From positions 1-35,312 of the forward strand of contig JAQUPP010000001.1 of the NCBI GenBank assembly GCA_028716665.1: a DNA stretch of 35,312 bases, read 5' to 3'. Under the pieces are notes generated by a model. It ran no database searches. It had not been told where the DNA came from and worked only from the letters and a program-made list of their open reading frames with translations. Positions 13,328 through 27,157 of this stretch are shown here, piece after piece. How positions within the stretch are numbered: position 1 is the first letter of the stretch; every line of letters begins with the position of its first letter. Made by a program: the position numbers and the translations under genes. The stretch is from Patescibacteria group bacterium. Lineage in GTDB: Bacteria > Patescibacteriota > Patescibacteriia > UBA2591 > JAQUPP01.

Positions 13328-13354
13328 ATATAAATACGGAGGCGAGATGGTTCG
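13328..13354 (-). repeat. Partial copy of the tRNA-Ser 3' end plus its downstream flank
   Basis: ATATAAATACGGAGGCGAGA at 13328-13347 is identical to 13575-13594 at the real tRNA-Ser 3' end. It then continues with a degenerate T-arm (TGGTTCG). Confidence 0.6.
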
Positions 13355-13472
13355 ACAGGCTCACCATTCTCAAACCAATTTTTCATATTTCAAAAAATAA
13401 AAGTGCAGATCCTCCCGACCCTAAACTCAATACTTTTCTCCTTTCCGAAATAAAGTACTAAGCTTGTCGAAG

Positions 13473-13492
13473 TACGGAGGCGAGAGGATTCG
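13473..13492 (-). repeat. Partial copy of the tRNA-Ser 3' end
   Basis: TACGGAGGCGAGAGGATTCG is identical to 13582-13601 of the genuine tRNA-Ser. No matching 5' half is present. Confidence 0.6.
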
Positions 13493-13583
13493 CTTCTCGC
13501 CATTGCTATGGCTCGAAACCTTCGCCCCCTCGCCGGGGACTGCGGCCCGCGGTTCGAATCTTATCTATCTGTGTATATAAATA

Positions 13584-13670
13584 CGGAGGCGAGAGGATTC
13601 GAACCTCTGATACCCTTACGGATATAGCAGTTTTCGAAACTGCCGCTTTCGACCACTCAGCCACGCCTCC
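13584..13670 (-). tRNA. tRNA-Ser (anticodon CGA), class II with long variable arm, CCA not encoded
   Basis: Minus sense reads GGAGGCG-TG-GCT-GAGTGGTCGAA-AGC-G-GCAGT-TTCGAAA-ACTGC-(variable arm ATATCC GTAA GGGTAT)-AGAGG-TTCGAAT-CCTCT-CGCCTCC-G. The cloverleaf was folded by eye. Confidence 0.9.
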
Positions 13671-13796: not shown

Positions 13797-14057
13797 TTAT
13801 GCATTTTCTAATGTACTCTTGAGTCTCTTTTTTAATTGAGCAAAAGCTCTAGATTTTAACTTTAAATTATGTTCTCGATGTCTTGCGTCTTTTTCAGAAA
13901 AATAAGCTTCATAATAAATTAATTTTAATGGTCGATAAAAATTAGTAGAAACAACTTTTCCTAAATTATGTTCTTCTAATCTTTTGTTTAAATCTGAAGT
14001 TGATCCGATGTAAAACCACTTATTTTTAGAGCTTTTTAAAATATAAACAAAAAACAT
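13797..14057 (-). CDS. Stand-alone GIY-YIG nuclease domain protein (COG2827/UPF0213-like)
   Basis: 86 aa. Motifs: FVYILKSSKNKWFYIGSTSDLNKRLEEHN...YYE...A..RE..LK. Confidence 0.85.
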   Translation of the reverse strand: MFFVYILKSSKNKWFYIGSTSDLNKRLEEHNLGKVVSTNFYRPLKLIYYEAYFSEKDARHREHNLKLKSRAFAQLKKRLKSTLENA

Positions 14058-14556: not shown

Positions 14557-14629
14557 TTCTCCCCCCTTATTTTATAATTAAATAAAGTATAACAAATTTT
14601 TAAAATTTGTCAAGAAAAACCAAAAGGGG

Positions 14630-15055
14630 CTATTTTAGCCCCTTTTTCTTAATTTTAATCATCTCTAAACCCGGATTAAATGTTCCTAACCCGACAATCA
14701 AAAAACTTATCCAAAAAAAATCAGATGCTATGCCCTTTAAACAAATAGTTTTAAACCGCAGAAAAGGATAAACCAAAAAAGTAAGCATTGCCGCATAACT
14801 GAAAATAAATAGATATACGCGAGATATCTTGCAACGCAAGGTTTCTTCTTCTTTTTTCTGACTATGCTTGATAAGAGAATAGTTGTCGTACACTATTTGT
14901 GCTAAAATATACAGAATTATTATTTCTGCCACAAATGATAATATTGATAATAATTCAGATATTTCACCGCAGAAACCCATCCAAAAAAAATACCAATAAA
15001 CAATGGTGACTATACCTAAAAAATTTAAAGATAATTTTATAAAGAACTTTTTCAC
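14630..15055 (-). CDS. Small 4-TM membrane protein, paralogue A (GTG start)
   Basis: 141 aa, MKKFF...IKIKKKGLK. Shares nucleotide-identical 5' and 3' ends with 15147-15536. Confidence 0.6.
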   Translation of the reverse strand: MKKFFIKLSLNFLGIVTIVYWYFFWMGFCGEISELLSILSFVAEIIILYILAQIVYDNYSLIKHSQKKEEETLRCKISRVYLFIFSYAAMLTFLVYPFLRFKTICLKGIASDFFWISFLIVGLGTFNPGLEMIKIKKKGLK

Positions 15056-15146
15056 CTCTTCCCCCTTTTGTCCGCTGATAGGCAGACTTTATTTAATTGT
15101 TGTTTAGTGTAACAGATTGTAAAAATTTGTCAATATAAAAAAGGGG

Positions 15147-15536
15147 CTATTTTAGCCCCTTTTTCTTAATTTTAATAATTTCTATACCTTTAAATAAAGC
15201 CATAAATCCAACAAATACCTGAACCGCCCAAATCATATCTGTGGCTATATTGCCATAACCCGAGCCTCGTAAATTAAAATAATTCCATCCGGTAAACATT
15301 GCTCCGATTCCAAAAACAAGCAAATATAATTGAATTGGTTTATGACAAGGCATAAGCTGGTTATATTCTAATATGTTTATCAGAATACCCGTGCCTATTA
15401 TTATCACGAAAAATAACCAACCCAATATTCCGGATTGCATGCTACCGTGAACTGTCAACCAAAAGATAAAAAAATAACCAACCGCGACTCCGATGGCGAA
15501 AAAATATAAAAATATATTTGAAAAGAACTTTTTCAT
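15147..15536 (-). CDS. Small 4-TM membrane protein, paralogue B
   Basis: 129 aa, MKKFF...IKIKKKGLK. GGGGG Shine-Dalgarno. The terminator hairpin overlaps the last codons. Confidence 0.6.
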   Translation of the reverse strand: MKKFFSNIFLYFFAIGVAVGYFFIFWLTVHGSMQSGILGWLFFVIIIGTGILINILEYNQLMPCHKPIQLYLLVFGIGAMFTGWNYFNLRGSGYGNIATDMIWAVQVFVGFMALFKGIEIIKIKKKGLK

Positions 15537-15598
15537 TTTTCCCCCTTTTTCTAATTATCTTTAATAATGTCAAATTTTAGACAAATCGTCAATAGATT

Positions 15599-16483: not shown

Positions 16484-18103
16484 TTAAATTAATTTTTTAA
16501 TCATTTCCTCTTCTTCTTTTAAAATATTTTCCCATAAATTAAAATTTTTGGAAGAAATAATTTCCATTTTATCTTTTAAATTTTTATTCAAAAGATTAAA
16601 GTTGTCGGGGTTATTCTCAATTAAATTAAGCAAAACGTCAATTTGCTCCAAATTTAAATGGCCGATCAACCTAAGCCAAAAATCTTTATCTTCCTTGCTT
16701 AAAGAAGAAAGAGAAATTATTTTTGTTAATCTTCTTTGTTGAATAAGGTCTTTAAATAACTCATCTATATTATTATTTTGATCTTCCATATTTACATTAT
16801 GTCTCATTTTATCGCTTTTGTCAATAATTATATTTAAGCCGATAATTAACCAAAATAAAACTGACAAATCATTTTTAAAATAAGGAGTGTCCACCAAACC
16901 ATGAATTAATATTGTTACCATGGCGGCCATAATCGTTAAGCTGGTAGGTTGGTAAGTTGGTAAGTTAATAAGTTTTATTTTTCTAAATCCGTCACGAAAA
17001 AATTTAATTAAAATCCACAAAAAAACAATCAATCCTGCCAACCCTAATTCGCACCAAAGAGCCAAAAATAAATTATGCGGATAAGGATGAGTTTCCACGG
17101 AAATCAATTGATGCGTTATTGGATCATAAAATCTGGCTTGATATTGGGAAATTAAATTCTGATAACCGCTTAAACCCACACCTAAAATCGGGTTGGTTTT
17201 AATCAAAGAAATCGCCCCTTGCCAAATATTAACCCGCAATTGTCCGGAAAGATTATAAAAAGTCACTTCTTGCCAAACATAATTTCGCGCCACTGGCAGC
17301 AATTCAATAATTAATAATAAAATAATTAAAGCAATTGTCGTCCACTTCCTGCTTGATTTATGAACAAGTCCCATAAAAATCAACCCGGCTAAAACTCCCA
17401 AAATCGCCCCATTACTTCTCGCTAAAATAATAGCTAAAACTGAAAATAAAATAGTAAAAGAATAAAATAAAATTTCAAATAATTCTTTATTTAATTTTAA
17501 ATTTTGCATTGTCATTTTGACTTTTGCACTTTGCACTTTGCACTTTAACTGGCCAATGGCCAGTATTATAATCGGACCCAGATACAATCCTAAAAAATTT
17601 GACTGGGGAAACAGACCGGTCGCCCGCCAAGTTTTCGGCGCGCCCCAAACTTCAGTGCTCATCATGCCGCCGAAATGAAAAATCTTTTGGCAAATCGCCC
17701 AAACAGAACAATAAAAAGCGGAAAAAATCAGCGCGTTTAAAATTAAATTAAAATCTTTTTTTGTTTTTATCAAATCAAGAAAAACTATTAATAAAAGAAT
17801 CGGTTCAATAAAATACGCTTTCCAGATTCCGGCCGCCTCTCGCAAATTTGGAGCAATAAACATGGAAATGGTGGCCACTGCTAACCAAATCAGAATTATC
17901 CAAAACCAGTTATTTAATTTTAAATTTTGAATTGTAATTTTGATTTTTGATTTTTGATTTTTGATTTTTTGTATCAGCCAAACTAAAAACAAAATCAAAA
18001 TCATTATTTCCAATAAAGTCATCGGCAAACCTAAAATCTGAAATCTGATTTGATAAGCCGGTAAAGCGGCGCAAACTAAAACTAAAAAATAAAAAATATA
18101 CAT
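16484..18103 (-). CDS. O-antigen ligase/polymerase-like (Wzy_C family) membrane protein with a soluble C-terminal tail
   Basis: 539 aa, more than 10 TM segments. The loop with ...RSNGAILGVLAGL... and HPHNLFL... is typical of O-antigen ligase-like proteins. It contains three low-complexity in-frame DNA repeats. Confidence 0.7.
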   Translation of the reverse strand: MYIFYFLVLVCAALPAYQIRFQILGLPMTLLEIMILILFLVWLIQKIKNQKSKIKITIQNLKLNNWFWIILIWLAVATISMFIAPNLREAAGIWKAYFIEPILLLIVFLDLIKTKKDFNLILNALIFSAFYCSVWAICQKIFHFGGMMSTEVWGAPKTWRATGLFPQSNFLGLYLGPIIILAIGQLKCKVQSAKVKMTMQNLKLNKELFEILFYSFTILFSVLAIILARSNGAILGVLAGLIFMGLVHKSSRKWTTIALIILLLIIELLPVARNYVWQEVTFYNLSGQLRVNIWQGAISLIKTNPILGVGLSGYQNLISQYQARFYDPITHQLISVETHPYPHNLFLALWCELGLAGLIVFLWILIKFFRDGFRKIKLINLPTYQPTSLTIMAAMVTILIHGLVDTPYFKNDLSVLFWLIIGLNIIIDKSDKMRHNVNMEDQNNNIDELFKDLIQQRRLTKIISLSSLSKEDKDFWLRLIGHLNLEQIDVLLNLIENNPDNFNLLNKNLKDKMEIISSKNFNLWENILKEEEEMIKKLI

Positions 18104-18253
18104 ACCAGGTAGTGAAAATTTGACAGTTATTATTTTGTCAAAATTTTAAAAAATTATATTATTTAATAAAAATATTATTCATACTCTATACCATAGTAGT
18201 GTTTTAAATTTTCCCTTTGGAAAAATTTTGGTCAAATTTCTACTACCTGGCAT
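18102..18253. repeat. Inverted-repeat-bracketed element 1 (23-nt arms, unrelated core)
   Basis: ATACCAGGTAGTGAAAATTTGAC (18102-18124) and GTCAAATTTCTACTACCTGGCAT (18231-18253). It fills the whole flippase-ligase intergenic space. The left arm abuts and overlaps the ligase-like start codon. Confidence 0.8.
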
Positions 18254-18258
18254 AAAAA

Positions 18259-19680
18259 TTATTTCAAATTCGCAATTTCTTTAATGGTTTGAGAAGAAAT
18301 TGTTTTCAAAAAATAAAGCGCGGCAAAATATATTATTATTGCCACAAAAATCAGGAAAAATAAATTTTGGCCGCTTAAAATCAACAGAAAAAATCCCATA
18401 ATCAAGCTGGCCAGAAGCGACTTTGAACCGATTTTAAAATTGGGCAAAAATTTGGTTGTTTTATAAATAATCCAGAAGGATAAAACCGTGGTCAATAATT
18501 CGGCGATAATTGTCATATAAGCCGCACCGTAATAAGAATATGTAGGAATAAAAATAAGGTAACCGATTAAACCCACTAGAGCGGAAATAAAATAAAAAGG
18601 AAGCATTAATTTTTGTTTTTCTATGGCAACCACGGCATAAGTTGACAAAGTTCCCAAGAAAATCAAACCGGTGGCCCAAATTAAAATTCTGAGCGGCGGC
18701 GCGGAAACAAGAAAATCTGCGCCGGCAACAAACATCATCAAAGGCGCGGCCAAACACATTGTTCCGATAATGAGCGGCCAAATAATAACCATAAAAAAAT
18801 CAAAAGATTTTTGAAAAATCATTTTAAAAGATTCAAGATTTTGTTCAGCCCATGAACGGCTTAAATAAGGCATAATCAATCCGACAAAGATCGGCGGAAA
18901 CATAATCAAAGTTTCTAAAATTCGATAAGATGCGCCGTAAATGCCGACATCGTTCTGCGATTGGAACAGAGAAAGAATAATCGTGTCACCCTTAAAATAA
19001 ACTGTTGTCAAAATCATTGAAAGAGCGACCGGCCAAGATTTTTTAAAAATATTCAAATGAGCATGGAAATCGGGCAATAAAGATATTTTGATTTGCTGGC
19101 CCAAAAATCGATAAAGAACATAAAATTCAACCAAACTGGAAAAAATAAGAGCCACCAAAACTCCAATCAAATGCGTTTTCAATAAAATCGCCGATTCGGT
19201 TAGAATTAATAAAACCAAACGGCCGGCTATTTCGGCAAAAACCACTTTTTTAATTTGCATTTTGGTCTGAAAAAAACCGGTCAATAACTGACTCAAAGAA
19301 GTGAAAATATAACTAAAAACAGTAATGAATATTCCGATTCTTATCAAGCCTGAATATTGAGGAATCAACAAGGCAATCAAGGGAGCGATGAACAAAAGAA
19401 CAATACTGGAAATCAAACGAAAACTGAAAAAATCACTGATTACTTTTTTTTCATCGGTTTTAGGCGCGGAAAGTATTTGAATAAAAACCAAATATAAACC
19501 AAGATTGGCGAAAATGGCAAAAACTTGAAGAAATGAAGTTACGGTCGTAAATTGACCAAATCCTTCTGTGCCCAAATAGTGAGTGATCATACTGAAAATA
19601 ATCAAACTCAAAAAAAGGCTGATTATTTTGCCGACTAAATGGACAAATGTGTTTTTACTGACCAAACTGGTTAAACTCAT
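18259..19680 (-). CDS. Polysaccharide/oligosaccharide flippase (Wzx/MOP superfamily)
   Basis: 473 aa, about 12-14 TM. The N-terminus KNTFVHLVGKIISLFLSLI...LGTEGFGQF is typical of polysaccharide biosynthesis (Polysacc_synt) proteins. Confidence 0.8.
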   Translation of the reverse strand: MSLTSLVSKNTFVHLVGKIISLFLSLIIFSMITHYLGTEGFGQFTTVTSFLQVFAIFANLGLYLVFIQILSAPKTDEKKVISDFFSFRLISSIVLLFIAPLIALLIPQYSGLIRIGIFITVFSYIFTSLSQLLTGFFQTKMQIKKVVFAEIAGRLVLLILTESAILLKTHLIGVLVALIFSSLVEFYVLYRFLGQQIKISLLPDFHAHLNIFKKSWPVALSMILTTVYFKGDTIILSLFQSQNDVGIYGASYRILETLIMFPPIFVGLIMPYLSRSWAEQNLESFKMIFQKSFDFFMVIIWPLIIGTMCLAAPLMMFVAGADFLVSAPPLRILIWATGLIFLGTLSTYAVVAIEKQKLMLPFYFISALVGLIGYLIFIPTYSYYGAAYMTIIAELLTTVLSFWIIYKTTKFLPNFKIGSKSLLASLIMGFFLLILSGQNLFFLIFVAIIIYFAALYFLKTISSQTIKEIANLK

Positions 19681-19823
19681 ACCAGGTAGTGAAAATTTGA
19701 CTACTTAAATAATTTGATGTTATTGAAATCTAAACTAGATACCAGAATAGCAAGAATTTGATTTATTAATATTTATTTTTAGTCCCGCTTTAACGGGACG
19801 GTCAAATTTCTACTACCTGGCAT
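19679..19823. repeat. Inverted-repeat-bracketed element 2 (same arms as element 1, different core)
   Basis: ATACCAGGTAGTGAAAATTTGAC (19679-19701) and GTCAAATTTCTACTACCTGGCAT (19801-19823). The left arm abuts and overlaps the flippase start codon. Confidence 0.8.
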
Positions 19824-19901
19824 ATTTAATTAAATTATATCAAAAAATAACAATTTGGCAATTGATTCCACGTCTTTATATTATTACTAAAAGGCACGGG
19901 G

Positions 19902-25571: not shown

Positions 25572-26486
25572 TTATTTTATTTCTCCCAAAAAAGATTCAG
25601 CCAGTTTGGCGGTTTCAATGTTTGGTTGATAAAAATTCTTCCAAACAACGACAATATCAGCATCATTAAAAATTGCTCGTTGCACTTCTCTAATAGTATC
25701 TCCTCCGGCTACGGCGACTAAAATATTATAATTTCCCTTAATCTGTTTTATTTGATAATAAGGAATTTGCTTTTCTTTGGAAAATTCGCTTTCATCGACT
25801 CCCCTGTGCAGTATCACTGCATTGGGGAGTTTTTTTAATTTTTTTAAAACCAAAAGAGCATTTTCAACATTCATCATGTCAATCATTGAATCAATATTGA
25901 ATTTTTCGCATTCCTCTATAAAACTATCAATCGTTTCAATCGGCGCGACCCCAAGACAAGTTGACGCATTAGCACCGGCGTTGGCCATCATCTCCACTTC
26001 GCGTGCCGCTAAATCCGCGCATTTATTGTCAGCAACTATGTAAGTTCCGGCGGAAGCCATATTTCTAATTTGCGAAATAGCGCCTGCCCCATATATTTTT
26101 ATCAAAGGCGTTCCGGCTTCAATTAAGATTCTATCCGAAACCGGAATTTGCGAAATAATTTCTCTCGCCTCTTCAAGCGTGCTGTTAAGGGCGATTTGAA
26201 GATATTTTTTGTTTTTTACCAGTCTTATTTGATTGGACAAAGGATGAACAACAAGAGGCTTAATTGAAGTTATTTTTTCAATAATTAATTGCTCCATTGT
26301 TTGATTATCTGTATTATTTACTATATTTTTTTTAATTAAATCAAAAAACGAAGATTTGGGATTTTTTTTGACATAAATAATAAGTATAATTATTAAAATT
26401 ATACTTAAACTTGGATTTATAATCATTGCAATAATAATTGCCAAGATGATCGGGTTAAATTTATTTTTTATATTTTTCGTCGGCAT
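25572..26486 (-). CDS. 3-hexulose-6-phosphate synthase-like (OMP decarboxylase superfamily) paralogue with an N-terminal TM extension
   Basis: 304 aa. Residues 1-40 are hydrophobic (IILAIIIAMIINPSLSIILIIILIIYV). The C-terminal ~210 aa carry LQIALN, IEAGTPLIK, VADNKCAD, MIDMMNVE, LHRGVDE, AVAGG. Confidence 0.6.
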   Translation of the reverse strand: MPTKNIKNKFNPIILAIIIAMIINPSLSIILIIILIIYVKKNPKSSFFDLIKKNIVNNTDNQTMEQLIIEKITSIKPLVVHPLSNQIRLVKNKKYLQIALNSTLEEAREIISQIPVSDRILIEAGTPLIKIYGAGAISQIRNMASAGTYIVADNKCADLAAREVEMMANAGANASTCLGVAPIETIDSFIEECEKFNIDSMIDMMNVENALLVLKKLKKLPNAVILHRGVDESEFSKEKQIPYYQIKQIKGNYNILVAVAGGDTIREVQRAIFNDADIVVVWKNFYQPNIETAKLAESFLGEIK

Positions 26487-27157
26487 TATTTTTTGATCGT
26501 TTTTAAAAATTCCTGCGCTAAATTAGCGGTATTTTCCGGTGATTCGTAAAAGGATTGCCAAATTACAGCAATATTAGAATCATTAAAAAAAGTTCTTACA
26601 ACATCGCGCGGGGTTTCTCCACCAGCAACTGATATCAAAACATTGCCATAAGTTCCTTTTATCCTGTGAATTTGATCATGCGGAATTTTTTTCTCTCTGT
26701 TTTTTTCTTTTTCATCTGCCCCGCGGTGCAATACAACCACGGTAGGAAGTTTTTTTAATTTTTGTAAAATTTCAAACGGAAATTCAACATTCATCATGTC
26801 AATCATTGAATCAATATTGAATTTTTCGCATTCTCTAATAAATTCATTTATAGTTTCCGCCGGCGCCAAACCCAAGCAGGTAGCCGCGGAGGCGCCTGCC
26901 TCGGCAACTGCTTCAACTTCTCTTGAGCCCCTGTCCATACATTTTAAATCAGCAACAATATATCCCGGTTTCTGTATTTTATCGCTCCACCAATTTTTTA
27001 ATGCAATAATGCCTTTCTGTCCGTATTTTTTTATCAAAGGCGTTCCGGCTTCAATAATTATTTTTTCCGAAGCAGGAAGCATCGCGATCATATTTCTTAC
27101 TTCATCAAGAGAGCGATTAAAAGCTATTTGTAAATATTTTGATCTTTGATTAAGCAT
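26486..27157 (-). CDS. 3-hexulose-6-phosphate synthase-like (OMP decarboxylase superfamily) protein
   Basis: 223 aa. Motifs: LQIAFN, IIEAGTPLIKKYG, VADLKCMDRG, AEAGASAATCLG, MIDMMNVE, LHRGADE, SVAGGETP. Its stop overlaps the downstream start (TAATG). Confidence 0.65.
   Translation of the reverse strand: MLNQRSKYLQIAFNRSLDEVRNMIAMLPASEKIIIEAGTPLIKKYGQKGIIALKNWWSDKIQKPGYIVADLKCMDRGSREVEAVAEAGASAATCLGLAPAETINEFIRECEKFNIDSMIDMMNVEFPFEILQKLKKLPTVVVLHRGADEKEKNREKKIPHDQIHRIKGTYGNVLISVAGGETPRDVVRTFFNDSNIAVIWQSFYESPENTANLAQEFLKTIKK

Follow-up and report, generated by a model that had tools for sequence, protein, structure and literature searches.

Recent insertions of MITE-like elements at the start codons of two surface-glycan genes in a Patescibacteria genome, and their GIY-YIG nuclease-carrying relatives

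Two elements at the start codons of surface-glycan genes

The window analyzed here, a 35,312-nt stretch of DNA from a Patescibacteria group bacterium, carries two neighboring genes on its minus strand, which encode a Wzx-like Polysacc_synt protein and a Wzy_C (O-antigen ligase/polymerase-like) protein; these domain matches agree with the original prediction, in which the genes were called a Wzx-like flippase and an O-antigen-ligase-like gene. Our arm search located four arms, two on the plus strand (18102-18124 and 19679-19701) and two on the minus strand (18231-18253 and 19801-19823), against none expected by chance (100 shuffles), confirming both the positions first reported and the identity of the arms between the two elements. 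The arms had been described as 23-nt brackets overlapping the start codons. The true inverted repeat is 20 nt long (18105-18124/18231-18250 in element 1; 19682-19701/19801-19820 in element 2), and the element boundaries are 20-nt inverted arms of the form CCAGGTAGT(AG|GA)AAATTTGAC. The outer ATA/ATG bases of the 23-mers fall within a 4-bp direct repeat (TATG in gene sense, CATA on the plus strand), with copies at 18101-18104, 18251-18254, 19678-19681, and 19821-19824, which includes the host start codon. Accordingly, two of the three asymmetric positions originally reported do lie within the arms (GA versus AG), and the third corresponds to the target-site duplication.

Element 2 (19682..19820, minus strand) is a non-coding MITE-like copy of 139 nt at the flippase start codon. 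Its gene-distal arm is of the AG type and reads CCAGGTAGTAGAAATTTGAC in gene sense (19801..19820, minus strand), and its gene-proximal arm, the complement of a GA-type arm, reads GTCAAATTTTCACTACCTGG (19682..19701, minus strand). The ATG of the upstream TATG copy (19821..19824, minus strand) opens a 14-codon relic ORF, MPGSRNLTVPLKRD (19823-19779, minus strand), while the downstream copy (19678..19681, minus strand) includes the flippase start codon (19680-19678). Just inside the gene-distal arm, both the MFE and the centroid folds contain a G+C hairpin, GTCCCG-n6-CGGGAC (19782..19799).

Element 1 (18105..18250, minus strand), a non-coding MITE-like copy of 146 nt, lies between the flippase stop codon and the start codon of the ligase-like gene. 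It likewise has an AG-type gene-distal arm (18231..18250, minus strand) and a gene-proximal arm complementary to the GA type (18105..18124, minus strand). Its upstream TATG copy (18251..18254, minus strand) opens a 24-codon relic ORF, MPGSRNLTKIFPKGKFKTLLWYRV (18253-18179, minus strand), and its downstream copy (18101..18104, minus strand) holds the ligase start codon (18103-18101). The hairpin just inside the gene-distal arm, AAAATTTTTCC-AAA-GGGAAAATTT (18206..18229; MFE and centroid folds), is identical in a sibling copy in L146. The two cores had been considered unrelated, and they are indeed mutually unalignable, but they have a common architecture, each with a G+C hairpin right inside the gene-distal arm plus an additional, degenerate arm-like piece. 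A G+C hairpin is found at the same position in most non-coding members of the family described below.

Empty sites in sister genomes and an element family across CPR bacteria

Two sister genomes, L144 and L145, encode flippases that are 99 and 98% identical to that of the window. At both junctions of both genomes there is a single TATG and the element is missing: the empty site of element 2 reads TATAATTTAATTAAATATGAGTTTAACC in L144 and L145, and that of element 1 reads GAAATAATTTATGTATATT in L144 and GAAATAATTTTTTATGTATATT in L145. Because of these single TATG copies without an element, both elements are recent, precise insertions with target-site duplication. Element 1 also has a sibling with the same core and different flanks at another locus (L146, 1921-2068), whose host gene is rplV-like, and near-identical cores occur at different loci of one MAG (L003 and L047); no sibling of the element 2 core was found in the collections searched. 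The empty sites, the target-site duplications found throughout the family, and the sibling of element 1 overturn the initial dismissal of MITE copy-paste.

The original prediction had also raised the possibility of invertons, in which a site-specific recombinase would flip the core between the arms and thereby control the glycan genes. Such systems at polysaccharide loci, including the Mpi-controlled promoters of Bacteroides fragilis, combine a recombinase, a promoter, two orientations per population, and a fixed locus. The elements resemble them in having inverted repeats of the right size (~20 bp) around 100-200 bp before surface-polysaccharide genes, at several loci, with the same arms enclosing different cores. 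In addition, the same cargo occurs with both arm configurations across the family, so that rare inversion between the arms probably happened in evolution. None of the four defining features, however, holds for the elements of the window. A single orientation is present in three independent assemblies, no invertase gene was found in the window, and our promoter scan, which recovered the outward-facing match in core 1 noted earlier, found no promoter reading through either core towards the gene; inside the elements the gene strand gave a single match, a weak 9/12 site that begins in the upstream arm of element 1. The native promoter of the flippase gene (TTGCCA-16-TATAAT, extended TG; 19834..19861, minus strand; 11/12 matches) lies outside element 2 and is kept in the empty-site genomes. 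The sister genomes simply do not have the elements, and other members of the family occur at essential genes and can contain an ORF in place of a promoter. We therefore regard the inverton explanation as extremely improbable.

The empty sites bear equally on the proposal of a cassette recombination system, in which the elements would be integron-like attC sites and the flippase gene a cassette. The elements recall attC anatomy in their imperfect inverted repeats, conserved mismatch, and variable center of 60-150 nt, and two copies of the same orientation enclose the flippase gene. Nevertheless, the arms have GTCAAAT and no GTTRRRY/RYYYAAC boxes, integrase and array are both missing, and the flippase gene is in place in the sister genomes, where just the two elements are missing. 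Moreover, integron recombination does not make variable 4-bp target duplications, and elsewhere the elements are single and located at housekeeping genes. The arms are the ends of a mobile unit, which preserves the cassette reading in a loose sense; the chance that the system is integron-like is, in our judgment, negligible.

The search for further copies of the arms, suggested in the original prediction, was successful: the same arms are present at a minimum of 60 loci in many CPR genomes (MAGs of Parcubacteria, Portnoybacteria, Berkelbacteria, Doudnabacteria, and other CPR), with several copies per genome, and paired elements always combine an AG arm with a GA arm. Non-coding copies measure 63-150 nt and gene-carrying copies 300-330 bp. 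The preferred targets are a start codon (TATG) or a Shine-Dalgarno sequence (GGAGG), and the element points in the same direction as its host gene. Among 57 distinct copies, ~36 are placed at a start codon and 12 inside a Shine-Dalgarno sequence. The flanking direct repeats comprise ~30 CATA, 6 TATG, 12 GAGG-type (some of them imperfect), and 9 other repeats, the target duplication being 3-4 bp long across the family. Host genes include leuS, rpmE, gpmI, the rpsU-dnaG operon, a gene with a GAGG Shine-Dalgarno sequence, and the rplV-like gene of L146. In orthologous insertions the arms changed at 1 of 40 positions, versus ~19-22% in the cores and ~30% in the flanks; collecting elements by exact arm match inflates arm conservation family-wide and leaves this orthologous-pair comparison unaffected.

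Arm covariation in relatives, proposed earlier as a check, is strong. Across the family 94% of cells in the stem are paired, with two-sided changes in 10 of 20 pairs, a level reached by 0 of 500 shuffles, and slid controls collapse; a G.T + A.C tandem mismatch is invariably kept. RNA folds gave z-scores of -7.0, -5.5, and -7.6. Each element has the overall shape of a single long hairpin, whose arms close a loop holding either junk/hairpin sequence or one gene. The long-range stem anticipated in the original prediction is therefore real and covaries family-wide. It could belong to a cis-regulatory RNA evolved by the host, with a 20-23 bp stem occluding the initiation region or creating an RNase III site between cistrons, and the high stability of the stem in gene-sense RNA, its covariation, and the better conservation of the arms than of their surroundings in old insertions are all in keeping with this. 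Yet the stem is missing at this locus in the sister genomes, which refutes such an origin, and the same arms accompany dozens of unrelated genes, with target duplications. No Rfam match for the elements was found, and either strand can form the stem equally well, as would be expected of DNA ends. A host-evolved regulator is thus very improbable, the stem being a property of the mobile element and, in its RNA form, likely a consequence of insertion rather than its origin. A role of the stem in RNA is nonetheless plausible, and it could plausibly affect or rescue translation after insertion.

Taken as a whole, including the arm-closed hairpin, the GIY-YIG-carrying relatives, the start-signal targeting, and the mobility proposed below, we consider it very probable that the pair in the window arose by recent and independent insertion of two non-coding, MITE-like copies belonging to a mobile family spread across CPR/Patescibacteria.

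GIY-YIG nuclease genes between the arms

The gene-carrying relatives harbor a single gene between their arms, which encodes an 87-aa single-domain GIY-YIG nuclease (E = 1.7e-17 for the L039 ORF) and is co-oriented with the host gene. In alignment A3 the order is TATG, arm, 7-nt linker, ORF with its stop at the arm edge, arm, and the TATG of the host gene; the nuclease ATG is in frame with the host ATG in only 7 of 15 full-length copies. The catalytic residues are invariant in 19 nuclease proteins (50-77% identity), and the nuclease matches UPF0213 and SLX1 in the PDB. Among 80 homologue loci, 16 have the exact arm motif beside the nuclease gene (at 14 loci it is present on both sides and at 2 on one side), and diverged bracketing repeats were found at ~10 of 14 further loci tested, 8 of them recognizably the same arm.

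The window itself encodes a free-standing GIY-YIG nuclease of 86 aa (13797..14057, minus strand; Pfam PF01541, E = 1.5e-16), which is 51% identical to the arm-bracketed nuclease (E = 6e-22) and near which no arms were found. The paralogue is a candidate trans-acting enzyme. The earlier statement that the window contains no recombinase holds as far as an invertase is concerned, and is qualified by this gene, whose family travels inside such arms.

Bacterial MITEs that are co-transcribed with genes, such as Correia/NEMIS of Neisseria, RUP, and ERIC, are thought to be mobilized by DDE transposases and have TA-like targets anywhere between genes. The CPR elements are similar to them in size (~70-150 nt), terminal inverted repeats, short duplication, and many gene-adjacent copies, and in forming a long transcript hairpin able to affect mRNA processing or translation. 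In contrast, only a GIY-YIG nuclease is associated with the CPR elements, which target start codons or Shine-Dalgarno sequences in an orientation that follows the host gene. The elements could be ordinary MITEs that depend on a conventional insertion sequence of the DDE type located elsewhere in these genomes, with the GIY-YIG gene as a frequent passenger or trapped host gene. Inverted arms of 20 bp together with a duplication of 3-4 bp are classically associated with DDE elements, nucleases of the GIY-YIG family are not known to join DNA, and a transposase encoded elsewhere would escape notice in collections searched only around arm matches. Within that search, however, no transposase lies between the arms at any locus, and GIY-YIG is the sole gene type found there (16 exact-arm and ~8 diverged-arm loci). 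The arms co-diverge with the GIY-YIG gene across lineages while keeping the mismatch, and the gene spans the loop, beginning 7 nt past one arm and ending at the border of the other, unlike a passenger. Homologous Ssn proteins, furthermore, have been matched biochemically to their own flanking hairpins (PMC11893778). On balance, a DDE origin seems unlikely.

Ssn nucleases and their SRM/NTS hairpin repeats, including NTS-ssnA-NTS units, have been described by Chenal et al. (2025; PMC11893778). These enzymes act on ssDNA only, require both hairpin sequence and structure, and cut ~3 nt upstream in a strand-specific manner, the hairpin loop being dispensable or extendable (PMC11893778). The CPR nuclease is likewise a single-domain GIY-YIG protein of ~90 aa whose catalytic Tyr/Tyr/Glu residues occupy equivalent positions (Y6/Y16/E62, versus Y6/Y17/E64 in SsnA), encoded between cognate inverted repeats that are also present as many gene-less genomic copies, with conserved stem sequence and structure and a free loop. 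It shares 45% identity with a Rhizobium GIY-YIG protein (E = 2e-13; hhalign probability 98.3%), whose gene is flanked by perfect SRM hairpins fitting the SRM consensus. The systems differ in that the CPR repeats are two halves of one hairpin with the gene or core in its loop, whereas Ssn genes have two local hairpins, and in that the CPR arms fail the published SRM consensus (HGTCWY...). The CPR elements also insert at translation start signals, and CPR hosts are unmentioned in the Ssn study (PMC11893778). Mobility, only a hypothesis in that study, is seen here in the empty sites, the 4-bp duplications, and the siblings, and the full-size relatives with an Ssn-related nuclease suggest that nuclease-plus-repeat units really move.

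NTS repeats in Neisseria cluster near surface/antigen genes and modulate transformation (PMC11893778), which raises the alternative of a domesticated, now immobile Ssn/NTS-like system, in which hairpin marks maintained by the host near surface genes would act with the nuclease to control incoming or single-stranded DNA. The window copies do border surface-glycan genes, the window also has a free-standing nuclease paralogue, and the arms are kept in place. On the other hand, both copies are missing beside flanking genes that are 98-99% identical, with a clean 4-bp duplication, most family members are found at housekeeping genes (rpmE, leuS, gpmI, rpsU) instead of surface genes, and sibling copies occupy unrelated loci. 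Domestication in place of mobility is thus quite improbable, although a secondary host role may exist alongside mobility.

IS200/IS605 elements use HUH/Y1 enzymes and have a subterminal hairpin at each end; they lack terminal inverted repeats and do not duplicate their target. Together with PATE and REP/RAYT, they resemble the CPR family in relying on a small nuclease-type enzyme that recognizes DNA hairpins, probably in single-stranded DNA, in the multiplication of gene-less hairpin copies, and in strand or orientation biases, but no HUH protein is associated with the CPR arms. These relatives are also discussed in the Ssn study (PMC11893778).

Proposed route of movement and effects on host genes

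We infer the following route of movement and reason for start-signal targeting. The GIY-YIG nuclease would recognize single-stranded or extruded DNA folded into the arm hairpin and cut a few nt outside this hairpin, like Ssn enzymes, and this cutting would drive mobility, non-coding copies being mobilized in trans. In this genome the enzyme could come from the paralogue (13797-14057) or from a full-length copy located beyond the window. GIY-YIG/Ssn enzymes are known as nucleases, and because we know of no strand-transferase activity in them, movement may require a further factor from the host or the element.

The arm has a single open frame, ATG-CCA-GGT-AGT..., and landing on a start codon would bring this frame under host initiation signals, which would thereby express an otherwise signal-less nuclease. 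The ATG regenerated after the second arm, the looping-out of the stem, and termination-reinitiation would together keep the host gene translated, and such continued translation would account for the tolerance of the element by essential genes and for the preservation of arms in situ. In the window copies a gap of ~70-95 nt separates the end of the relic ORF from the host ATG, so that termination-reinitiation in its simple form is a weak account of these two cases. No demonstrated mechanism accounts for the near-exclusive targeting of start signals or for the shared orientation of non-coding copies and their host genes. Palindromic elements of Rickettsia are inserted inside genes and translated as part of the protein. 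Like them, the CPR elements are short palindromic mobile repeats of a reduced genome, tolerated in or next to coding sequence by keeping a frame open; the CPR element differs in being located at the initiation signal, which it restores.

Both host genes of the window were correctly noted to have no Shine-Dalgarno sequence, and the empty sites show that none was ever present. At the empty sites the ligase starts 3-6 nt after the flippase stop codon, and the flippase is almost leaderless, with the TATAAT of its native promoter 10 nt before the original ATG. In the window, this promoter now reads into element 2, and the presence/absence polymorphism probably alters how the Wzx-like and Wzy-like surface-glycan genes are expressed in comparison with the sister strains.

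Two short insertions in front of the surface-glycan genes

Two minus-strand genes, an O-antigen ligase/polymerase-like gene (Wzy_C; 16484-18103) and a Wzx-like flippase gene (Polysacc_synt; 18259-19680), are each preceded by a short element bracketed by inverted repeats: element 1 (18105-18250, minus strand) lies in front of the ligase-like gene and element 2 (19682-19820, minus strand) in front of the flippase gene. The original prediction had named both genes correctly and had placed all four arms exactly, each arm being identical between the two elements (0 expected by chance). The inverted repeat it described is real, but its length of 23 nt has to be corrected to 20 nt, since the outermost bases of the 23-mers form a 4-bp direct repeat, TATG; likewise, two of its three asymmetric positions lie within the arms (AG in one arm, GA in the other), and the third lies outside them, in the direct repeat. 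In gene sense, both elements read TATG, CCAGGTAGTAGAAATTTGAC, core, GTCAAATTTTCACTACCTGG, TATG-gene, with the start codon held by the downstream copy of the direct repeat. The arms are complementary at 18 of 20 positions in both copies, and on the folded strand the AG/GA positions give one G.U(T) pair and one A.C mismatch. Neither element carries a mobility gene; element 1 (146 nt) contains a relic ORF of 24 codons and element 2 (139 nt) one of 14 codons, and these relic ORFs end ~70-95 nt ahead of the host ATG. The core of element 2 holds a G+C hairpin (CGTCCCG...CGGGAC). The cores also contain a degenerate extra arm-like piece (e.g., 19739-19762), which may be a relic of a tandem or nested insertion.

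A homology search with the flippase retrieved two sister genomes without the elements, L144 and L145, whose flippase proteins are 99 % and 98 % identical to that of the window. At the site of element 2, both read ...TTGCCA-N16-TATAATTTAATTAAATATGAGTTTAACC..., with a single TATG followed directly by the second codon. At the site of element 1 they read GAAATAATTTATGTATATT and GAAATAATTTTTTATGTATATT, with 3-6 T between the flippase stop codon and the ligase ATG. TATG flanks both elements on both sides in the window and occurs once only in L144 and L145, and the excess of the window is exactly 139 + 4 and 146 + 4 bases. Both elements are insertions with a 4-bp target-site duplication, and the 1-2 % divergence of the flippase proteins indicates that the insertions are younger than that. 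The empty sites also account for the missing Shine-Dalgarno (SD) sequences, correctly noted in the original prediction: the flippase mRNA is natively almost leaderless, and coupling of the ligase start to the stop of the flippase gene is the native state. In a promoter scan of 16-21 kb, the native flippase promoter was found outside element 2; it is strong, and its -10 box ends 10 nt before the ATG.

Three explanations had been offered for the elements, and the first, a phase-variable promoter switched by inversion of the core, drew on an outward-facing promoter in core 1. This promoter-like match was recovered (10/12, pointing away from the gene), chance matches being common in such A+T-rich DNA. 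No match reads through either core towards the gene; the only gene-strand site is a weak 9/12 match that starts in the element 1 arm itself, subject to the same chance level, and the scan revealed no terminator in the elements. The lack of an inward-reading promoter may speak against an inverton, which is contradicted by the empty sites in the sister genomes, by the filled allele, which is identical base for base, core orientation included, in three independent assemblies, and by the lack of a recombinase among the scanned ORFs. The claim that no recombinase lies in the window held for tyrosine and serine recombinases, none of which was found in a scan of its main ORFs that covered 30 of the 51 with a length of at least 80 aa, but must be qualified by a GIY-YIG nuclease paralogue at 13797-14057.

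Another explanation offered was recombination sites of a cassette system; an integron-like cassette is also contradicted: the flippase gene stays in place where the elements are absent (L144 and L145), the arms read ATTTGAC / GTCAAAT and not RYYYAAC ... GTTRRRY as in attC sites, the scanned ORFs include no integrase, and there is no array of cassettes. A search of the window against Rfam, group I and II introns included, gave no match at gathering score, and only noise was returned at E up to 1 for the two elements and a full-length relative. The features that mark miniature transposable elements with inverted repeats (MITEs) are present, namely terminal inverted repeats, target duplication with an empty site, small gene-less size, multiple copies, and a longer coding relative.

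A family of covarying arm pairs at start signals of CPR genes

Further copies of the arms, as suggested originally, were sought in a species-representative genome collection using the 20-mer with RR at the two asymmetric positions. At least 60 DNA stretches match, often at several loci per MAG, and all of the MAGs among these matches are of CPR/Patescibacteria type (Parcubacteria, Portnoybacteria, Berkelbacteria, Doudnabacteria, and others), although automated TPA records label some of them differently. When the partner arm was permitted to carry mismatches, we recognized 59 distinct elements of 63-310 nt, at least 57 of which are distinct copies, and every complete element has one AG arm and one GA arm. 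The flanks were tallied by hand with each element written AG arm first: ~30 elements have CATA...CAT(A/G), i.e., TATG for a gene on the opposite strand; 6 have TATG...TATG, the two of the window included; 12 have flanks of the GGAGG...GAGG type, 5-9 nt upstream of an ATG; and 9, mainly the shortest elements, have other flanks (AAA, TTT, CACG, TCAA, TATT). According to ORF calls, elements abut the start codons of rpmE (L005), gpmI (L011), and leuS (L039). In L016 the insertion lies within the SD of a gene for a membrane protein, and in L027 within that of the leading gene of the rpsU-dnaG operon, for which a second locus (L043) has an orthologous insertion.

The elements sit on start signals, in sense orientation, and essential genes are among their hosts. 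Such a preference for start codons and SDs is very unusual, and it raises the question of how translation persists across an insertion of 140-310 nt. Nearly all targets are either TATG at a start or GGAGG at an SD, two motifs whose common trait is that they are parts of ribosome-binding sites and not a DNA sequence. Random use of TATG followed by purging from coding sequence does not predict this pattern, and targeting of open complexes at leaderless promoters fails at operon-internal sites such as those of element 1 and L146.

Most cores are unrelated to each other, apart from some subfamilies. One core is common to L003 and L047, which represent two loci of a single MAG, and a metagenome scan with a piece of the element 1 core identified a sibling, L146, whose core agrees with that of element 1 in its first 36 and its last 28 bases. 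This sibling follows TAA-AAAAT at the start codon of an rplV-like gene, and a compensatory change is seen in its arms (ACTTTGAC/GTCAAAGT). The same core at different loci indicates that the elements are copied and are mobile; taken together, the data show both insertion with duplication of 4 bp and copy-and-paste of gene-less copies. A 28-mer search of the collections for a sibling of the element 2 core was empty, and its 19-nt hairpin gave matches in unrelated phyla only, which we regard as chance matches. Tandem or nested elements sharing one TATG are found in four loci (L073, 1400-1787; L040, 4940-5115; L034, 2249-2436; L038, 7812-7974); as each insertion regenerates the target on both sides, arrays can build up.

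Some arms have no recognizable partner within 400-600 nt (L044, 3914-3933; L041, 2169-2188; L058, 4637-4656), and here either the arm stands alone or the second arm of the element has decayed strongly. Near the unpaired arms of L041, L044, L051, and L058 we found no transposase or distant partner, and only ordinary genes or a small unrelated ORF, such as the 124-aa ORF at the expected core position in L041. Carriage by phages was dropped because matches in viral contigs are at chance level (78 single 16-mer matches, 0 full 20-nt arms, and 0 paired arms). The gene-less copies are polar: a G+C hairpin lies beside the gene-distal arm in ~28 of 29 judged by eye (exception, L002 1746-1899). The idea that this hairpin is a terminator selected against in one orientation was rejected, as a proper U-tract is missing. 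The cores are also not detectably decayed nuclease genes, beyond a possible CTGG(C/T)A relic, and the likeness of the arms to Cas12a repeats, splice sites, or SD/anti-SD sequences is limited to short similarities with no supporting feature.

The remaining original explanation was a long-range RNA stem, with covariation of the arms as a check. The outer half of the arm, CC(A/G/C)GGTAGT, is conserved across lineages, and the inner half varies in step on both arms (TTCGAC/GTCGAA, TTTGAT/ATCAAA, TGCGAC/GTCGCA, AAGTTTCAG/CTGAAACTC, and AAACTTCATG/CATGAAGTT), while the GA-against-AG asymmetry is kept in every lineage. In an alignment of the arms only (17 arm types, transcribed by hand, with an artificial loop between the two arms), pairing holds in 94 % of cells and 10 of the 20 stem pairs show two-sided changes, values reached by 0 of 500 shuffles; when the partner arm is slid by one base, pairing falls to ~46 %. 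Stem positions 10 and 11 always form one G.U and one non-pair. Homologous cargo occurs with both configurations (GA...CT in L064; AG...TC in L066 and L072), and element 1 has AG...TC vs GG...CT in its sibling L146, showing that the conserved feature is the mismatch itself and not the identity of left and right ends. A symmetric configuration was never seen, though both asymmetric ones exist.

Comparison of orthologous insertions in two pairs, both old, shows a difference at 1 of 40 arm positions, compared with ~19-22 % of core and ~30 % of flank positions, a constancy with a probability on the order of 1e-3 per pair in a simple binomial calculation. This shows that the arms are held constant in place, by selection or conversion. 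Since elements were ascertained by an exact arm match, family-wide arm conservation is inflated, but the result for the orthologous pairs is unaffected. In RNA folds of the two window elements and a full-length relative, the arms enclose everything else (z = -7.0, -5.5, and -7.6), and the same pairing is open to either DNA strand. The predicted stem was borne out in that it covaries and folds; a regulatory RNA evolved by the host is contradicted as the origin of the elements and survives as an effect only.

A small GIY-YIG nuclease gene inside the arms

The 310-nt element of L039 is a coding relative of the window elements. From its upstream TATG, a 97-codon ORF reads across the arm (MPGSENLTAI) and, without a change of frame, on into a GIY-YIG protein of 87 aa with PF01541 as its only Pfam domain (E = 1.7e-17). 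Coding elements of this arm-GIY-YIG-arm type span 300-330 bp. Using the L039 protein as query, we retrieved 80 homologue loci from CPR genomes, 16 of which have the exact arm motif beside the nuclease gene (14 on both sides and 2 on one side). Among 14 further nuclease loci, ~10 have diverged bracketing repeats, 8 of these being recognizably the same arm, 3 are directly preceded by a short arm-arm element, and 1 has nothing. Fifteen aligned full-length elements share one plan: TATG, arm, ~7 nt (nGCGATT), ATG-nuclease-stop, arm, and TATG-host ORF. In these elements, the nuclease ORF is always co-oriented with the downstream host gene, its stop codon lies across the second arm's inner edge, 20 nt ahead of the host ATG, and its ATG is in frame with the host ATG, depending on linker length, in 7 of 15. 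The arm is open only in the TATG-CCA frame, because the other two frames hold TAG-TGA/TAG-TAG or TGA. Elsewhere, full-length copies occupy an SD (L075, GGAGG...GAGG) or an A-run (L100), or stand in tandem with a short element with which they share TATG (L073).

The residues Y6, Y16, G18, R26, H30, N31, and E62 are invariant among 19 nuclease proteins that are 50-77 % identical, indicating that the gene is under purifying selection. It lacks a promoter and an SD, and in full-length elements its start region (GCGATTATGTTC) forms a conserved second stem with the gene's own E-H-N codons (GAACATAATCGC) ~75 nt downstream, with up to 17/17 complementary positions (L064, 1495-1512 with 1585-1602; also L077, L080, L081, and L103). 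IS10 employs fold-back inhibition of translation, and by analogy this second stem may repress translation of the nuclease mRNA. The nuclease gene is the sole cargo found between the arms, whose stem is both conserved and mismatched, and the GIY-YIG protein is a candidate for the enzyme that mobilizes the MITE-like copies. That a conventional transposase moves the elements, with the nuclease as a passenger, seems unlikely to us. The elements of the IS200/IS605 PATE and REP/RAYT systems, in contrast, have subterminal hairpins, no terminal inverted repeats or target duplication, and an HUH/Y1 enzyme, and are not matched by CPR elements that combine terminal inverted repeats, duplications, and a GIY-YIG protein.

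The window itself contains a free-standing GIY-YIG gene (13797-14057, minus strand; 86 aa, Pfam E = 1.5e-16), a paralogue with 51 % identity to the protein of the arm-bracketed family (E = 6e-22) that has Leu in place of the invariant Trp44 of the family. No arms were found at this gene, only AAAATTTGAC, 37 nt upstream of the ATG. Adjoining it are three direct copies of a tRNA 3' end, TACGGAGGCGAGAGGATTCGA (13328-13355, 13466-13493, and 13575-13602), only the last of which belongs to an intact tRNA (13584-13670); in appearance they are remnants of the att sites of integrative elements.

Among solved structures, those nearest in sequence to the nuclease are 1zg2 and 1ywl, both UPF0213 proteins, and the SLX1 nuclease domain (E = 1e-5 to 2e-4), and NCBIfam returned no informative family for the nuclease. 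A closer parallel is Ssn, a family of ~94-aa single-domain GIY-YIG proteins (CDD cd10448); cognate hairpin repeats (SRM; NTS in Neisseria), each a local hairpin of 20-50 nt, flank their genes and are multicopy in the genome (PMC11893778, 2025). Ssn binds the hairpin only as ssDNA, with both sequence and structure of the stem needed, cuts one strand only, ~3 nt upstream of the hairpin in the variable flank, and tolerates loop replacement, a split hairpin, and long loop extensions (PMC11893778). The authors likened NTS-ssnA-NTS to an insertion sequence and only speculated on mobility of the gene-plus-repeat unit, with no report of duplications, empty sites, insertion preferences, or CPR (PMC11893778).

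Like Ssn, the CPR nuclease is a single-domain protein of similar size (87 aa, against ~90-100 aa) with the catalytic residues, and its gene is flanked on both sides by its own repeats, with several copies per MAG. In contrast to Ssn repeats, the CPR arms are not self-complementary; the two arms pair across the loop as one hairpin split around the gene. Their sequence departs from the SRM consensus HGTCWYN(0-2)YYVSBRHN(0-5)WNVSBRGN(0-2)RNCYNB, GTCAAA and GTCGAA failing at W-Y when compared by eye. A tblastn search of plasmids with the CPR protein identified an Ssn-type GIY-YIG gene on plasmid pRheCIAT894e of Rhizobium sp. CIAT894 (L234, 586297-586785) flanked by a perfect 33-nt inverted pair, CCGTCATCCCAGGGCTTGACCCTGGGATCCA, each copy of which is a local hairpin that fits the published SRM consensus (checked by hand). 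The two proteins share 45 % identity over the catalytic core (E = 2e-13; hhalign 98.3 %), and because of this match we regard the CPR nuclease as a putative Ssn-type or Ssn-related protein and its arms, judged from sequence, as a probable variant repeat in which a single hairpin is split around the gene. A domesticated, non-mobile role like that of Ssn/NTS is, in our estimate, even less probable than a passenger nuclease. The Rhizobium unit, whose inverted similarity extends to ~90 bp on each side, beside an IS4 transposase gene, has the look of a transposon-like unit, and as its host is a cultivated bacterium it might be used as an experimental model. G+C hairpins in the cores, e.g., that of element 2, were considered as possible degenerate SRM-like sites.

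A tentative mechanism and its implications

The most far-reaching interpretation, which we put forward tentatively and with more doubt than confidence, is that of a minimal autonomous transposon of ~300 bp whose sole protein, an 87-aa Ssn-type nuclease, is encoded inside its own recognition hairpin, and which would insert specifically and in sense into start signals, borrow host initiation, and be rendered harmless by start duplication and looping-out. By analogy with Ssn biochemistry, the nuclease would recognize the arm hairpin in single-stranded or extruded DNA and cut a few bases outside it, the Ssn cut distance being of the same order as the 4-bp duplication; the stem mismatch may mark the strand used. 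After landing on a host start codon, ribosomes recruited by host signals would read the open frame of the arm into the nuclease gene and stop translating at the second arm's edge, 20 nt ahead of the regenerated host ATG, so close that they could plausibly reinitiate there. When the insertion is of the SD type, the native spacing to the ATG is kept by the downstream copy of the SD. Pairing of the arms in mRNA could bring the two copies of the start signal together and loop the element out, which would explain both the preservation of arms in place and the tolerance of insertions by ribosomal-protein and synthetase genes. For the gene-less copies of the window, looping-out and not reinitiation would have to carry host translation, because of the distance between the ends of their relic ORFs and the host ATG. 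It is quite possible that expression of the glycan genes is reduced relative to the sister strains, and a secondary host function of the elements is possible.

Both MITEs and, since 2025, small GIY-YIG nucleases flanked by cognate hairpin repeats are already known, and our literature search on CPR MITEs, GIY-YIG transposons, and start-codon MITEs found nothing specific. New are the direct genomic evidence of mobility for a nuclease-plus-repeat unit of putative Ssn type (clean filled and empty sites, target duplications, siblings, and gene-less derivatives), the split-hairpin architecture with the gene in the loop, the CPR host range, and the start-signal target with sense orientation. If the proposed mechanism is true, it would represent a new, GIY-YIG-driven transposition chemistry for prokaryotes and also a novel means by which a parasite becomes 'translationally transparent'. 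The genomes of CPR bacteria are tiny and dense, and mobile DNA is considered scarce in them, a picture changed by a family with several copies per genome in many CPR lineages. Ssn enzymes are under development as ssDNA tools, and the present family, its split hairpin being long and easily re-designed, is a natural source of new specificities.

In CPR rRNA genes, GIY-YIG-encoding insertions that are not introns have been reported to be scattered over sites, along with many short (<200 bp) uncharacterized insertions (PMC11270868). Membership in the family described here may explain these insertions, in which case the arm stem could be cut out as an intervening sequence is. In the window, the insertions are strain-level differences in front of Wzx-like and Wzy-like genes and could underlie cell-surface variation, relevant to the episymbiotic lifestyle and to phage attachment.

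Other repeats were observed in the window. The Wzy_C coding sequence contains two perfect heptanucleotide arrays, TTTTGAT x4.6 (17938-17969), which is the same in L144 and absent from L145, and TTTGCAC x3.4 (17523-17546); since a 7-nt unit shifts the frame on a change in copy number, this gene may hold a slipped-strand phase-variation site. Two tandem paralogous small genes (14630-15055 and 15147-15536) have no Pfam match and are each followed by the same terminator hairpin, AAAAGGGGCTATTTTAGCCCCTTTTT, their repeats extending over 14622-14671 / 15139-15188 and 15018-15069 / 15499-15550. Finally, the adjacent OMP-decarboxylase/HUMPS-family genes (ORFs 25572-26486 and 26486-27157) have in common a 120-nt stretch with 74 % identity (26089-26208 and 27021-27140), indicating a tandem duplication.
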